A stretch of DNA of 64,000 nt from Escherichia phage Ge15, in the sequence record PP359696.1. One strand, written 5' to 3'. The translations under genes were made by a program, and so were the position numbers. The notes under the pieces were generated by a model. That model was not told the origin of the DNA. It made no database searches and worked only from the letters and a program-made list of their open reading frames with translations. Below are positions 5,912 through 53,195 of the stretch, in pieces (position 1 is the stretch's first letter; each line of letters starts with the position of its first letter).

Positions 5912-5984
5912 TGGGAATTAGCCAAGTTGGTAAGGCACTGGATTTTGATTCCAGGATGCAAAGGTTCGAGTCCTTTATTCCCAG
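5912..5984 (+). tRNA. tRNA-Gln (anticodon UUG)
   Basis: Cloverleaf by eye: acceptor TGGGAAT/ATTCCCA, anticodon loop TTTTGAT, T-arm GGTTCGAGTCC; abuts tRNA-Leu as a dimeric precursor. Confidence 0.85.
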
Positions 5985-5985
5985 C

Positions 5986-6073
5986 GCGAGAATGGTCAAA
6001 TTGGTAAAGGCACAGCACTTAAAATGCTGCGGAATTATTTCCTTGTGGGTTCGAGTCCCACTTCTCGCACCAA
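5986..6073 (+). tRNA. tRNA-Leu (anticodon UAA)
   Basis: Acceptor GCGAGAA/TTCTCGC, anticodon loop CTTAAAA, long variable arm, encoded CCA. Confidence 0.85.
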
Positions 6074-6077
6074 ATTT

Positions 6078-6151
<74 letters not shown>

Positions 6152-6155
6152 ATTT

Positions 6156-6806
6156 ATGACTCGTCGTGAGACGCTCAGTTCTTTATTAGGGACTGATATG
6201 CATTTTTATCTTTATAAAATAACAAATAAAATTAATAATAAAATTTATATTGGTGTGCATTCTACCGAAAATTTAGATGATGGATATATGGGTTCTGGTA
6301 AATTATTAAAAAGAGCCCAAGATAAATATGGTATAGAAAATTTTTCTAAAGAAATATTAGAGTATTTTGATGATAAAGAATCTATGCTTGAAGCCGAGAA
6401 AAATATTGTCACAGAAGAGTTTTTAAATAGACCAGATGTGTATAATTTAAAACTTGGAGGTGAAGGTGGATGGGACCATATAAATAATTATCCTATGACA
6501 GATCAGCAACGCGAATTAATTTCATTGGGTGTTAAAAAGGCACATTCTAACGGAAAATTAAAAGGATGGTCTTCAAATGGATTAATGAAGAATGGCTTTA
6601 CTGGTAAAACTCATTCTCAAGAAGCTAAACGTAAAATAGCAAAAGCAAACGAAGCAAAAGTTTCTGCGGATGAAAGAAAAAGAAGAATAGAAATTTCTAA
6701 ATTATATGATTTTTCTAAGCGTGGTGAATTATCTAAATATGCTAAGCATATTGGCGTAAGTCATACTCAAGCAAAAAGAATTCTAAATCAAATTAACAAT
6801 ATATAA
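6156..6806 (+). CDS. segB: GIY-YIG homing endonuclease SegB-like
   Basis: GIY-YIG motifs (YLYKITNKINNKIYIGVH ... YMGSG) in an ORF embedded in the tRNA cluster as T4 segB; true start may be ATG 6198. Confidence 0.75.
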   Translation: MTRRETLSSLLGTDMHFYLYKITNKINNKIYIGVHSTENLDDGYMGSGKLLKRAQDKYGIENFSKEILEYFDDKESMLEAEKNIVTEEFLNRPDVYNLKLGGEGGWDHINNYPMTDQQRELISLGVKKAHSNGKLKGWSSNGLMKNGFTGKTHSQEAKRKIAKANEAKVSADERKRRIEISKLYDFSKRGELSKYAKHIGVSHTQAKRILNQINNI

Positions 6807-6812
6807 ATATTT

Positions 6813-6902
6813 GGAGGCGTGGCAGAGTGGTTTAATGCACCGGTCTTGAAAACCGGCAGTCGCTCCGGCGACTCATAGGTTCAAATCCTATCGCCTCCGC
6901 CA
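6813..6902 (+). tRNA. tRNA-Ser (anticodon UGA)
   Basis: Acceptor GGAGGCG/CGCCTCC, anticodon loop CTTGAAA, long variable arm, CCA encoded. Confidence 0.85.
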
Positions 6903-6908
6903 GTTTTT

Positions 6909-6984
6909 GCTGATTTAGCTCAGTAGGTAGAGCAACTCACTTGTAATGAGAAGGTCGGCGGTTCGATTCCGTCAATCAGCACCA
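6909..6984 (+). tRNA. tRNA-Thr (anticodon UGU)
   Basis: Acceptor GCTGATT/AATCAGC, anticodon loop CTTGTAA, T-arm GGTTCGATTCC. Confidence 0.8.
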
Positions 6985-6985
6985 A

Positions 6986-7060
6986 GGCCCTGTAGCTGGA
7001 AGGTTCAAGCAAGCGACTCATAATCGCCAGATGGTGGTTCAATTCCACCCAGGGCCACCA
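6986..7060 (+). tRNA. tRNA with CAU anticodon (Ile, lysidine-type as in T4, or Met)
   Basis: Acceptor GGCCCTG/CAGGGCC, anticodon loop CTCATAA, T-arm GGTGGTTCAATTCCACC. Confidence 0.75.
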
Positions 7061-7066
7061 AATTAA

Positions 7067-7153
7067 GGGGAGTTATCCCGTAGAGGTAGCGGTGTGGACT
7101 GTAAATTCATTGTCATTGCGACTCGGGTGGTTCGACTCCACCACTCCCCACCA
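7067..7153 (+). tRNA. tRNA-Tyr (anticodon GUA)
   Basis: Acceptor GGGGAGT/ACTCCCC, anticodon loop CTGTAAA, long variable arm resembling E. coli tRNA-Tyr, T-arm GGTGGTTCGACTCCACC, CCA. Confidence 0.7.
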
Positions 7154-7157
7154 ATTT

Positions 7158-7232
7158 GGATGTGTAGCTCAATGGCAGAGCGATCGCCTGTTAAGCGATT
7201 GGTTATAGGTTCGAATCCTATCACGTCCGCCA
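7158..7232 (+). tRNA. tRNA-Asn (anticodon GUU)
   Basis: Acceptor GGATGTG/CACGTCC, anticodon stem ATCGC/GCGAT with loop CTGTTAA, T-arm GGTTCGAATCC. Confidence 0.8.
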
Positions 7233-7346
7233 AATTTGTGACAACTGTCACATTAATATCTACTTGACGCGATTATAGGGGTTGAACTGATCACTCTTCT
7301 CTTAATTTCGTGTGAAGACATCTTGATTGTTGGAGTAGGTATTAAT

Positions 7347-7422
7347 GTGGCCGTAGTTCAGTTGGTAGAACTCGAGATTGTGATTCTCGTAGTCATGGGT
7401 TCGACTCCCATCGGTCACCCCA
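7347..7422 (+). tRNA. tRNA-His (anticodon GUG)
   Basis: Extra 5' G, anticodon stem CGAGA/TCTCG with loop TTGTGAT, T-arm GGTTCGACTCC, CCA. Confidence 0.8.
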
Positions 7423-7426
7423 ATTA

Positions 7427-7502
7427 CGGGGCATAGCTCAGAAGGAAGAGCAAGGACCTTCTAAGTCCTAGGTCGTAGGTTCGATCCCTACTGCCTCGAC
7501 CA
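7427..7502 (+). tRNA. tRNA-Arg (anticodon UCU)
   Basis: Acceptor CGGGGCA/TGCCTCG, anticodon stem AGGAC/GTCCT with loop CTTCTAA, CCA. Confidence 0.85.
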
Positions 7503-7520
7503 ATTATAAGTGAGGAAAAT

Positions 7521-7871
7521 ATGAAAGGTAATGTTTATTTAGTAGTTCATGATTTAACATTTTACTTCAATGAATATGAAAAACATATCTCATTTCGTGA
7601 AATTAATTTACTTTATCAACATGCGGATTATATTTATATTCAAAACGAATTTGGTCATTGGCAATTTCTCAAAAATCGTTCATTTGGCTTAGATGGTTAC
7701 GAATACTTTGAACGTAAAGACCTTTTAGATAAAATTCCGTTATCTACGCAATATCAAAATCACAAATCTTTATATAAATGCCGTCCAATTCGAAATGTTG
7801 AATCCGCGTATGAAGCAATTGATTTATGGCGTGAACGCCGTAAACAGATTGATGCTTTAAAAGAATATTAA
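7521..7871 (+). CDS. hypothetical protein
   Basis: 116-aa ORF with GAGGA RBS immediately after tRNA-Arg. Confidence 0.55.
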   Translation: MKGNVYLVVHDLTFYFNEYEKHISFREINLLYQHADYIYIQNEFGHWQFLKNRSFGLDGYEYFERKDLLDKIPLSTQYQNHKSLYKCRPIRNVESAYEAIDLWRERRKQIDALKEY

Positions 7872-7874
7872 GAA

Positions 7875-8180
7875 ACCGGGTCGCTACCGGTAAGTCGTCG
7901 GACTGATGTTCCCTGAGTAAGGAATTGCGTTAATAATCTTTGCGTTTATTGATGCCCTCTTACATCACAGCAGAAACGGCGCACCGAATTATCGATTCGA
8001 GGAAATATCTTTGCCGTAAGCCGAGTAGCGTTTTTGACGGAACGTTCGGATATGGTCGAGATATGGCCTTTTAAAAATATTGAGTAGCGTCAACTGCTTA
8101 ATAACCGGGTTCGAATCCCGGCGTTTCGTACAAACACTTGCCTTAGCAGGTGGAACCCCGACAAGGTTGCCGCAAGGCTT
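7875..8180 (+). ncRNA. structured non-coding region, candidate stable small RNA(s) (possibly T4 rnaC/rnaD analogues)
   Basis: About 300 nt with no plausible ORF, GC-rich local hairpins and a tRNA-like T-arm CCGGGTTCGAATCCCGG; ends at a terminator. Confidence 0.25.
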
Positions 8181-8181
8181 A

Positions 8182-8208
8182 GCCCCAGCCGAAAGGTTGG
8201 GGCTTTTT
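8182..8208 (+). terminator. rho-independent terminator
   Basis: Hairpin GCCCCAGCC-GAAA-GGTTGGGGC followed by TTTTT. Confidence 0.7.
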
Positions 8209-8210
8209 AG

Positions 8211-8218
8211 TATAAATA
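8211..8218 (+). promoter_or_regulatory. late promoter TATAAATA
   Basis: Exact TATAAATA about 37 nt upstream of ATG 8255. Confidence 0.6.
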
Positions 8219-8254
8219 AGTATATTAAAACCACGAATTAAAACAGGAAATAAG

Positions 8255-8728
8255 ATGAAATCATATGCTCAATTTTTAAATGAAGCGGTGTTAAATGAAG
8301 CATCTAGCACCGAAATTCAAGCTGTCGCAAAAGCTGCCATTGCCGCGGGTAAATATTCCTATAAAGATGCTTCCGATGAATCACGATTCCAATTTGCTCG
8401 TGATATGAAAGCCGAAGGATTTACAGGGAATGCAGTTAGTATGGCTTGGAAAAGTTTAGTTGCTACTGGAGCTGCTTTTGCAAAGGCTTCAGGTAAACCT
8501 GCTCCTAAGGCTGACCCTAAAGCAGCACAAGAGAAAAATATTGTTAAAGGAATTATCTCCAAATATGAAGCTATCCTTAAAGAGCTTTTAGTAATCAAAA
8601 CTGAAGGCCAAAAACTAGCTCGTGCTTATAGTTTCAAAGATAACCCACATGCTCACTCTCTTGAGTATGTTGAAGACATTCAAAAAATTATTAAAGACCG
8701 CATTTGGTCTGCTAAACAAATCAAATAA
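8255..8728 (+). CDS. internal-protein-like late protein with capsid targeting sequence
   Basis: 157-aa ORF, N-terminus MKSYAQFLNEAVLNEA resembles the internal-protein CTS with L-x-E cleavage sites; late promoter upstream; terminators on both sides. Confidence 0.6.
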   Translation: MKSYAQFLNEAVLNEASSTEIQAVAKAAIAAGKYSYKDASDESRFQFARDMKAEGFTGNAVSMAWKSLVATGAAFAKASGKPAPKADPKAAQEKNIVKGIISKYEAILKELLVIKTEGQKLARAYSFKDNPHAHSLEYVEDIQKIIKDRIWSAKQIK

Positions 8729-8735
8729 CATTCTT

Positions 8736-8763
8736 AGCCCTAGCCGAAAGGTTGGGGCTTTTT
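8736..8763 (+). terminator. rho-independent terminator
   Basis: Hairpin AGCCCTAGCC-GAAA-GGTTGGGGCT then TTTTT; near-copy of the 8182 terminator. Confidence 0.7.
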
Positions 8764-52454: not shown

Positions 52455-53195
52455 ATGATTAACGATTATATGACAGTTGAAGAAATCCGTCTTCATTTGG
52501 GGCTTGCATTAAAGGAAAAAGATTTCGTAGTTGATAAAACTGGCGTTAAAACTATTGAAATTATTGGCGCATCATTTGTAGCAGATGAACCATTTATTTT
52601 TGGCGCTCTTAATGATGAATACATTCAGCGTGAACTTGAATGGTATAAATCTAAAAGTTTGTTTGTTAAAGATATTCCAGGTGAAACACCGAAGATTTGG
52701 CAACAGGTAGCATCTTCTAAAGGCGAAATTAACTCGAATTATGGTTGGGCCATCTGGTCAGAAGATAACTATGCCCAGTATGATATGTGTTTAGCTGAAC
52801 TTGGTCAAAATCCTGATTCTCGACGCGGTATCATGATTTATACTCGTCCATCCATGCAGTTTGACTACAATAAAGATGGTATGTCAGATTTCATGTGTAC
52901 GAATACAGTACAGTACCTGATTCGTGATAAGAAAGTCAATGCAGTAGTGAGCATGCGTTCAAATGACGTTGTCTTCGGATTCCGTAATGATTATGCATGG
53001 CAAAAATACGTACTAGATAAATTAGTATCTGATTTGAATGCAGGTGATTCAACTCGTCAGTATAAAGCAGGTTCTATTATATGGAATGTTGGAAGTCTTC
53101 ATGTATATTCTCGTCATTTTTACTTGGTTGATCATTGGTGGAATACTGGCGAAACTCATATTGTGAAAAAAGATTATAATGGTGAGTGGAAATGA
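52455..53195 (+). CDS. 42: dCMP hydroxymethylase gp42
   Basis: 246-aa thymidylate-synthase-like ORF, T4 gp42 size and position. Confidence 0.92.
   Translation: MINDYMTVEEIRLHLGLALKEKDFVVDKTGVKTIEIIGASFVADEPFIFGALNDEYIQRELEWYKSKSLFVKDIPGETPKIWQQVASSKGEINSNYGWAIWSEDNYAQYDMCLAELGQNPDSRRGIMIYTRPSMQFDYNKDGMSDFMCTNTVQYLIRDKKVNAVVSMRSNDVVFGFRNDYAWQKYVLDKLVSDLNAGDSTRQYKAGSIIWNVGSLHVYSRHFYLVDHWWNTGETHIVKKDYNGEWK

Follow-up and report, generated by a model that had tools for sequence, protein, structure and literature searches.

At the 3' end of its tRNA operon, the 64,000-nucleotide stretch of Escherichia phage Ge15 DNA that we analyzed (sequence record PP359696.1; the window) almost certainly carries the Tequatrovirus copy of the T4 rnaD-rnaC unit, an orthology that we assign to positions 7868-8208 from sequence comparison, taking identity and architecture together. 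The explanation as a whole, that the unit specifies two stable, structured non-coding RNAs at the end of a phage tRNA operon, we consider very probable. The feature is already known, as T4 rnaC (species 1 RNA) and rnaD (species 2 RNA), and its recognition here is a rediscovery. As a finding this carries little weight, since both RNAs have had known sequences since the 1970s and appear in the annotation of the T4 reference genome; what we add are comparative fold models and a loop-loop complementarity, which leave the category of the feature unchanged. The original prediction had proposed, among other readings, stable small RNAs like T4 rnaC and rnaD, and base-for-base alignment with the T4, RB27, and Aplg8 genes bears this out. 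The parts of the unit and the reading frame before it are as follows.

7521-7871, plus strand: 116-aa ORF, phrog_3355 (E = 6.7e-52), between tRNA-Arg (7427-7502) and rnaD
~7868-7985, plus strand: rnaD (species 2 RNA) ortholog, identical to T4 at 116/119 aligned positions, with bounds taken from T4, RB27, and Aplg8
7986-7991, plus strand: 6-nt spacer GAAUUA between rnaD and rnaC, from alignment to the T4 annotation
7992-8130, plus strand: rnaC (species 1 RNA) ortholog, identical to T4 at 137/139 nt, with no gaps
8131-8180, plus strand: conserved 50-nt 3' trailer, near-invariant in relatives
8181-8208, plus strand: intrinsic terminator of the operon (stem, GAAA loop, T run)

The T4 annotation (NC_000866) runs tRNA-Arg, rnaD (119 nt), a 6-nt spacer, and rnaC (139 nt); RB27 and Aplg8 are annotated in the same way for both RNAs, and the window aligns colinearly with them. 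The trailer and terminator (8131-8208) match T4 at 73 of 78 positions. In blastn searches, T2L, RB3, RB5, and RB10 had rnaC or rnaD annotated where the window matches, and the interval 7871-8215 matched Shigella phages SHBML-50-1 and ESh17 at 100% identity and several hundred T-even-type genomes at 90-99%, the region being conserved in ~800 T4-like phage records. Most of these ~800 related GenBank records leave it unannotated or fill it with spurious "hypothetical proteins" or "tRNA-Phe/tRNA-OTHER" calls.

Just upstream of the unit, ARAGORN placed ten tRNA genes on the plus strand (5912-7502). The genes of this cluster lie 1-10 nt apart, a range into which the 6-nt spacer between rnaD and rnaC fits. 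The 116-aa ORF, which runs with its stop codon (7869-7871) into the 5' end of rnaD, is absent in T4 and RB27 and present in Aplg8 and in three IMG/VR loci (L139, L140, L149); the order tRNA-Arg, rnaD, rnaC is retained in the window despite this insertion. Downstream, the trailer contains small hairpins at 8135-8152, 8154-8168, and 8169-8178, and is probably a processing region 3' of rnaC; it may hold an RNase III site, as reportedly described by Pragai and Apirion in 1981. It is retained even in JS10-type phages, which are without rnaC, and by eye one trailer hairpin there changes from GCC/GGC to ACC/GGU. The fold of 8131-8215 had a z score of -3.89. The strong terminator that had been read from the letters is present, with a 10-bp stem (7 G-C pairs) and GAAA loop at 8181-8204 and a T run up to 8208, and the Aplg8 annotation places a terminator at the matching position; it sits, however, just beyond position 8180, where the region had been thought to end with it. 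The region was also correctly described as locally GC-rich, the GC content of 7875-8180 being 47.7%, compared with 34.6% over the whole window and 29-38% in the ORFs on either side.

The view that the region holds no credible ORF stood up as well: the mechanical ORFs that overlap it, of 44, 53, and 81 aa, are not conserved. We give next to no credence to small proteins made from these frames. The ORFs do exist, and many GenBank records show CDSs labeled "hypothetical protein" over the region, but the frames are interrupted in T4 and other homologs, and in the window a single frame runs uninterrupted through rnaC, one that meets a stop codon in T4. As rnaC homologs are 139, 140, or 141 nt long, no reading frame is conserved among them, every frame being shifted by insertions or deletions of 1-2 nt, and substitutions are compensatory in helices rather than enriched at third codon positions. 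Given these broken frames and compensatory substitutions, we rejected coding potential for the region.

A covariation analysis across related phages, a check that had been put forward with the original prediction, supported a fold for each RNA. For rnaC, we applied RNAalifold and pair counting to 13 sequences from five groups of T-even-like phages. The RNA is modeled as a tRNA-shaped four-way junction, a tRNA mimic whose fold is backed by covariation, with the following parts.

7993-7999 with 8122-8128, plus strand: acceptor stem, 7 bp (RNAalifold and pair counts)
8000-8069, plus strand: long arm, 70 nt, interrupted, in place of the D arm (RNAalifold and pair counts)
8070-8077, plus strand: A-rich linker (RNAalifold)
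8078-8103, plus strand: 10-bp arm (RNAalifold and pair counts)
8105-8109 with 8117-8121, plus strand: T arm, 5 bp, loop UUCGAAU (RNAalifold and pair counts)
8129-8130, plus strand: 3' tail UA (RNAalifold)

A single unpaired base separates the 10-bp arm from the T arm in the RNAalifold model, and this 13-sequence consensus agrees with the single-sequence minimum. The minimum free energy is -50.2 kcal/mol (z = -4.55), and none of 200 shuffles was equally stable. Across the 13 sequences, 94.5% of cells were paired, compared to 38-50% when the 3' partners were slid, and compensatory changes on both sides occurred at 26 of the 45 pairs; 0/500 shuffles attained the observed pair statistics. In the acceptor stem, the third pair alternates between A-U and G-C among homologs, and a tandem U.U (7996-7997/8124-8125) that is present in most phages is U-A and C-G in the Yersinia phages. 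The T arm covaries as CCGGG/CCCGG, CCAGG/CCUGG, CCUGG/CCAGG, and CUUGG/CCAAG. Across genera the stems drift, yet the RNA keeps its length (139-141 nt), its T loop, both loops of 6 nt, and several unpaired motifs. A covariance model built on this fold scored 151.5 bits at the window copy, which is the single copy in the window. A weaker match at 52917-53053 (14 bits, E = 0.23) was at chance level, another at 1076-1188 of locus L134 was merely two adjoining tRNAs, and the metagenome and genome scans each gave one chance match (L151, L152), neither confirmed by the covariance model.

Several details read from the letters can be placed on this model. The T arm CCGGG-TTCGAAT-CCCGG is exact, at 8105-8121, and calling rnaC "tRNA-like" proved apt, given its covarying acceptor stem, canonical T arm, and tRNA slot in the operon. 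The absence of a full cloverleaf holds for a canonical tRNA, as judged by ARAGORN and Rfam, but a covarying, non-canonical four-way junction does exist. The reported palindrome GACGGAACGTTCGG is found at 8036-8049, but a true palindrome is limited to its core, GAACGTTC (reverse complement CCGAACGTTCCGTC); in the RNA, GACGGAACGTTCGG makes up part of one hairpin loop and the 3' strands of two long-arm helices. Two hairpin loops of the model are complementary to each other.

8034-8039, plus strand: loop UUGACG at the tip of the long arm, proposed kissing partner, complementary to 8088-8093
8088-8093, plus strand: loop CGUCAA of the 10-bp arm, proposed kissing partner, complementary to 8034-8039

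All six positions of these loops form Watson-Crick pairs in 13/13 rnaC sequences. Both are invariant apart from one change in the Yersinia-phage lineage, where UUGAUG faces CAUCAA after a compensatory double change from C-G to U-A, while the stems below them are free to vary; in UFV01, for example, the CGUCAA loop is kept and its closing pair goes from G-C to A-U. This complementarity supports a putative 6-bp kissing helix, on the strength of a single compensatory event in evolution. As perfect complements, the loops would form a kissing contact, inside a single molecule or joining two. A kissing dimer of rnaC is a live possibility, as the 22-bp and 10-bp arms of the same junction may not be able to meet.

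We also weighed whether rnaC is a degenerate tRNA or pseudogene, or a real tRNA carrying a large insertion, with 8037-8044 paired to 8122-8129 as its acceptor stem; this we judge highly improbable. ARAGORN found no tRNA and no tmRNA in the rnaD-rnaC region. With all 4,227 Rfam models run over the whole window at the gathering threshold, only tRNAs passed, and none passed for rnaC or rnaD, so the Rfam scan proposed with the original prediction returned no family above threshold in the region. A permissive scan of 7500-8300 gave chance-level matches only (best E = 0.55) and no RF00005 match in 7503-8300. ARAGORN and the Rfam tRNA model are thus silent here; the sole match to any tRNA model, to tRNA-Sec at 8037-8129, scored 16.6 bits (E = 2.6) against a gathering score of 47. 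This weak match speaks for a tRNA origin, as do a 96-nt "tRNA-Phe" called by ARAGORN and by the depositors inside the KKP_3262 homolog, the annotation "tRNA-OTHER" at the homolog in G9062, and the complete pairing (8/8) of the internal helix in T4-like phages. All three calls, however, arise from pairing the 3' strand with 8037-8044 instead, which we rejected as a conserved pairing because it makes 5/8 pairs in 5/13 sequences. Being complete only in T4-like phages and 5/8 elsewhere, with G.U becoming A.C in other sequences, it is not the conserved helix; the compensatory changes fall instead in the helix joining the 5' and 3' ends. The RNA further lacks a 7-nt anticodon loop, a D arm, and an encoded CCA, and it is conserved like a working gene. 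Length, loops, and helices are maintained from genus to genus and compensatory changes occur; a decaying gene does not show such a pattern, and the suggestion of a degenerate tRNA that accompanied the original prediction is therefore set aside.

For rnaD, 17 distinct sequences were compared and share a common fold. The RNA is modeled as a short hairpin followed by a long one, the base of the long hairpin being invariant and its tip hypervariable.

7875-7879 with 7887-7891, plus strand: hairpin 1, loop GUCGCUA (comparative fold)
7894-7900 with 7977-7984, plus strand: hairpin 2, basal stem, invariant (comparative fold)
7907-7910 with 7969-7972, plus strand: hairpin 2, middle stem (comparative fold)
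7914-7921 with 7959-7967, plus strand: hairpin 2, further stems (comparative fold)
7922-7958, plus strand: distal hairpin, hypervariable (comparative fold)

The 5' part, with its 5-6 bp hairpin at 7875-7891, is invariant among the 17 sequences, and the pair at the base of hairpin 1 goes from A-U to G-C among variants. Paired changes recur farther along: U7907-A7972 of the middle stem is A-U in six sequences, and 7917/7963 changes from G-C to A-U. At least four versions of the distal hairpin, unrelated in sequence, were found, and each folds as a hairpin; a tip so variable suggests pressure from the host. The rnaD covariance model scored 129.9 bits at the window copy and recovered diverged copies in Karam- and Kanagawavirus, immediately past tRNA-Asn or tRNA-His.

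We collected rnaC homologs by blastn with diverged copies and by two pattern scans of IMG/VR, of which a wide-gap pattern returned ~120 chance loci and a tighter one seven real loci. Homologs occur in Tequatrovirus, Kanagawavirus (CIP9), Tegunavirus (fHe-Yen9-01), Citrobacter phage Ursula, and Karamvirus (VPA32, ZX13, KKP_3262, EcL8g, UFV01). Outside Tequatrovirus, rnaC is flanked by two tRNA genes with spacers of 5-8 nt: in Karamvirus its neighbors on the two sides are tRNA-Trp and tRNA-Gly, each separated from it by 5 nt, and rnaD is far away; in phage Ursula it is found mid-cluster among the tRNA genes; and the Yersinia phages have it ahead of tRNA-Trp. In JS10-type phages, rnaD is fused straight to the trailer and rnaC is cleanly missing, so there are hosts in which rnaC can be dispensed with. 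Each RNA is a module independent of the other, and both occur in several Tevenvirinae genera, always among tRNA genes.

This distribution bears on the main rival to a functional role, that rnaC and rnaD are passive by-products, structured spacers or 3'-end stabilizers of the tRNA operon that guide or survive processing, or shield the precursor from 3' exonucleases, and have no role once released. The position of the unit at the operon's 3' end beside a strong terminator fits such a view, as do the absence of rnaC from JS10-type phages, the description of the T4 tRNA region as non-essential (PMC2330249), and 50 years without a function found (PMC3014915, PMC9697503). Against it, the mid-cluster position of rnaC in Karamvirus and phage Ursula, and its place before tRNA-Trp in the Yersinia phages, show that it is not a 3'-end element, and rnaD homologs travel with different tRNAs. 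A spacer would also have no need of a length, two 6-nt loops, a T loop, and unpaired motifs that are invariant across genera. On balance we regard passive by-products as unlikely.

How the two RNAs are made can be drawn largely from T4. A passage of PMC2330249 that cites Broida and Abelson describes the whole T4 tRNA cluster as one precursor ending at a terminator past rnaC, from which the tRNAs, rnaC, and rnaD are excised, with both RNAs accumulating. T4 RNAC and RNAD have been classed as late RNAs with Northern blot validation, the described probe being RNAC (PMC9697503). The counter-reading offered with the original prediction, that the region might simply be a long 3' UTR, with no conserved structure and no stable transcript, is contradicted by the conserved structure and by the published stable T4 transcripts, including this RNAC Northern blot (PMC9697503). 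For the window copy, we propose that the 5' end of rnaC would be cut by RNase P, as for a tRNA, and that its 3' end would be trimmed back to the acceptor stem. The 12-bp stack of acceptor stem and T arm is the unit recognized by RNase P, and from this stack together with the tRNA slot we infer that rnaC is probably released as a tRNA is. Reports from the 1970s and 80s are said to implicate RNase P and RNase III in processing of the T4 species RNAs; RNase P reportedly cleaves rnaC, according to work of the 1970s, and T and pseudouridine were reportedly found in species 1 RNA in T4 work of the 1970s-80s.

What rnaC does after its release is a matter on which we offer a tentative proposal, possible rather than probable: that it is a decoy or protein-binding tRNA mimic. 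It would act by binding a protein that senses tRNA shape, rather than by pairing with mRNAs, and its target may be a host tRNA-processing, tRNA-modifying, or tRNA-targeting defense factor, for which it would serve as decoy or sponge. With the conserved loops of rnaC taken up by each other and a tRNA-like limb as its conserved outer surface, protein binding would be the most likely mode of action. A search of the 64-kb window for antisense targets found no complementary stretch of at least 14 nt and nothing above chance, which also points toward a protein-binding role. Weighing against the proposal are the non-essential T4 tRNA region (PMC2330249), the loss of rnaC in JS10-type phages, and the lack of an encoded 3' CCA. 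The same results weigh on the idea that rnaC and rnaD are base-pairing regulatory small RNAs acting in trans on phage or host mRNAs, which we hold to be very unlikely. In favor of this idea, the two are small, abundant, and late in expression (PMC9697503), and a regulatory role has been speculated upon (PMC12685909). The two most conserved loops of rnaC are, however, engaged with each other; the longest complementarity in the window is at most 13 nt, AT-rich, and confined to the hypervariable part of rnaD; and no Hfq-type sRNA family was matched in the Rfam scans.

One published observation concerns rnaD more directly. When a T4-like phage adapted to a semi-permissive E. coli strain, one SNP in the rnaD region arose in 3/3 replicate lines (PMC12685909). 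This convergent SNP and the hypervariable rnaD tip hint at a host-specific role, and we considered a more elaborate reading, in which both rnaC and rnaD are counter-defense or host-range RNAs. In it, rnaC would be a tRNA-shaped decoy that holds an Asp-anticodon-like loop (C-GUC-AA) on an internal Asp "codon", GAC, by means of the 6-bp kissing helix, and in this state it would offer a tRNA-like limb, folded in advance, to a tRNA-sensing or tRNA-cleaving host factor. For the Yersinia phages, the same reading has GAU paired with AUC. A variant would make rnaC a two-state switch, with the helix between 8037-8044 and 8122-8129 as the alternative state. In rnaD, an exchangeable hypervariable hairpin would be mounted on an invariant protein-binding base and would diversify under host pressure, which fits the convergent SNP that arose during adaptation to a semi-permissive host. 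We think this counter-defense reading rather unlikely.

Neither RNA has an Rfam family, and related GenBank records carry spurious calls in their place, which amounts to an annotation gap. Concrete mutants for a function question that is 50 years old can be drawn from the covarying rnaC junction and its complementary loops and from rnaD, with its invariant base and swappable tip, and with tRNA-targeting bacterial defenses and phage tRNA countermeasures now an active field, the function of rnaC and rnaD has become testable.

We finally set the rnaC model beside known RNAs. Bacterial Y-RNA-like tRNA mimics (YrlA) and viral tRNA-like structures are non-coding, mimic part of the tRNA shape, and engage tRNA-binding proteins. 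The mimic in rnaC differs from that of YrlA in being built from both ends of the RNA rather than as an internal module, and T-even phages are not known to have a Ro/Rsr partner. With tmRNA, which is also an RNase P substrate, rnaC shares an acceptor stem and T arm set on a larger RNA with further structured parts and a tertiary loop contact, the last being in rnaC the proposed kissing helix. Unlike tmRNA, it has no G3.U70 alanine identity pair, the third acceptor pair being A-U or G-C, and it has no tag reading frame and no CCA and is far smaller.

The likeness to tRNA itself lies in a 7-bp acceptor stem stacked on a 5-bp T stem with the 7-nt T loop UUCGAAU, and in the occupation of a tRNA slot of a tRNA operon with tRNA-like spacers. 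At the DNA level, rnaC also has the T-arm motif GGTTCRANTCC (8107-8117), which is the core of the SegB recognition site (PMC2330249). In contrast to a tRNA, rnaC is 139 nt long and has neither a D arm nor a 5-bp anticodon stem with a 7-nt loop, these two arms being replaced by the 70-nt arm and by a 10-bp stem capped by a loop of 6 nt; it encodes no 3' CCA, the genome reading CAA past the tail. The closest comparison is with T4. The window rnaD begins after an intervening 116-aa ORF, whereas T4 and RB27 rnaD begin 1-2 nt past tRNA-Arg, and the two-hairpin fold is common to the T4 and window copies. In rnaC, the two copies differ by two substitutions, C8057/U and G8096/A, of which one falls in an internal loop and the other turns a U.G pair into U-A. 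With equal length and the same place in the operon, rnaD before it and trailer and terminator after it, the window rnaC is the same gene as T4 rnaC.

A structured gap within the tRNA cluster may be either a leader of tRNA-His or the cluster's third small RNA. The two cluster features considered here, in window coordinates, are as follows:

7233-7346, structured gap of 114 nt between tRNA-Asn and tRNA-His (fold and blastn)
7067-7153, + strand, tRNA-Tyr(GUA) with a long variable arm (ARAGORN)

The gap folds strongly (-32.7 kcal/mol, z = -4.36), and blastn matches to it come from 355 phage records spanning several genera, namely phages of Escherichia, Klebsiella/Raoultella, Salmonella, Erwinia, and Enterobacter. 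In all loci inspected, tRNA-His lies immediately 3' of the element, which is without annotation in every record inspected. We observed compensatory changes in its ~14-bp closing stem, while in some lineages the interior, unlike this stem, has been swapped out. Elsewhere in the cluster, the Rfam tRNA model, at its gathering threshold, reported all ten tRNAs except tRNA-Tyr.

Homologues of rnaC (the orthologue of T4 species 1 RNA) in other phages include the following:

L004 1509-1648, rnaC homologue of Enterobacter phage CIP9, with a non-canonical T loop
L010 1179-1274, 96-nt "tRNA-Phe(gaa)" of the public record, within the KKP_3262 rnaC homologue

In the CIP9 homologue, the T loop is UGCAUGC rather than UUCGAAU, and the junction position equivalent to window 8065-8066 reads CG in place of GG. 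By analogy with the T-loop/D-loop contact of tRNAs, these two changes, present in a single lineage, may represent tertiary covariation. The tRNA-Phe call in KKP_3262 was obtained again by ARAGORN, and part of the G9062 homologue (NC_054920) is labeled "tRNA-OTHER" in the public record. Both labels are probably false tRNA calls, most likely caused by the T arm together with an internal helix that is not conserved.

Three ORFs lie within or next to this RNA gene cluster in the window:

7521-7871, 116-aa ORF inserted between tRNA-Arg and rnaD (phrog_3355)
8255-8728, 157-aa ORF of unknown function, flanked by both copies of the operon terminator (phrog_2280)
6156-6806, SegB-like GIY-YIG/NUMOD3 homing-endonuclease ORF between tRNA-Gly and tRNA-Ser (phrog_314, E = 1.5e-55)

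The 116-aa ORF has no Pfam match. Immediately 5' of rnaD (the T4 species 2 RNA orthologue) is the junction AAGAAACCGGG, and the finding that at least four different upstream sequences abut it in related phages (the end of a tRNA-Arg gene, the ends of two distinct ORFs, and one further sequence) suggests that it is a recombination hotspot. Downstream, the operon terminator is present as two near-exact copies (8181-8208 and 8736-8763) that share 22 identical nt, AGCCGAAAGGTTGGGGCTTTTT. The 157-aa ORF, present in RB27 but absent from T4, looks like a cassette inserted between these repeats.

The rnaC T-arm DNA (8107-8117, GGTTCGAATCC) fits GGTTCRANTCC, the conserved core of the SegB recognition site (PMC2330249). 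Because of this match, rnaC could serve Seg-type endonucleases as a site of cleavage or recombination, and such a role would be consistent with the modular gain and loss of rnaC. The window itself contains no tRNA-Pro; in T4, RB27, and Aplg8, tRNA-Pro occupies the position of the SegB-like ORF.
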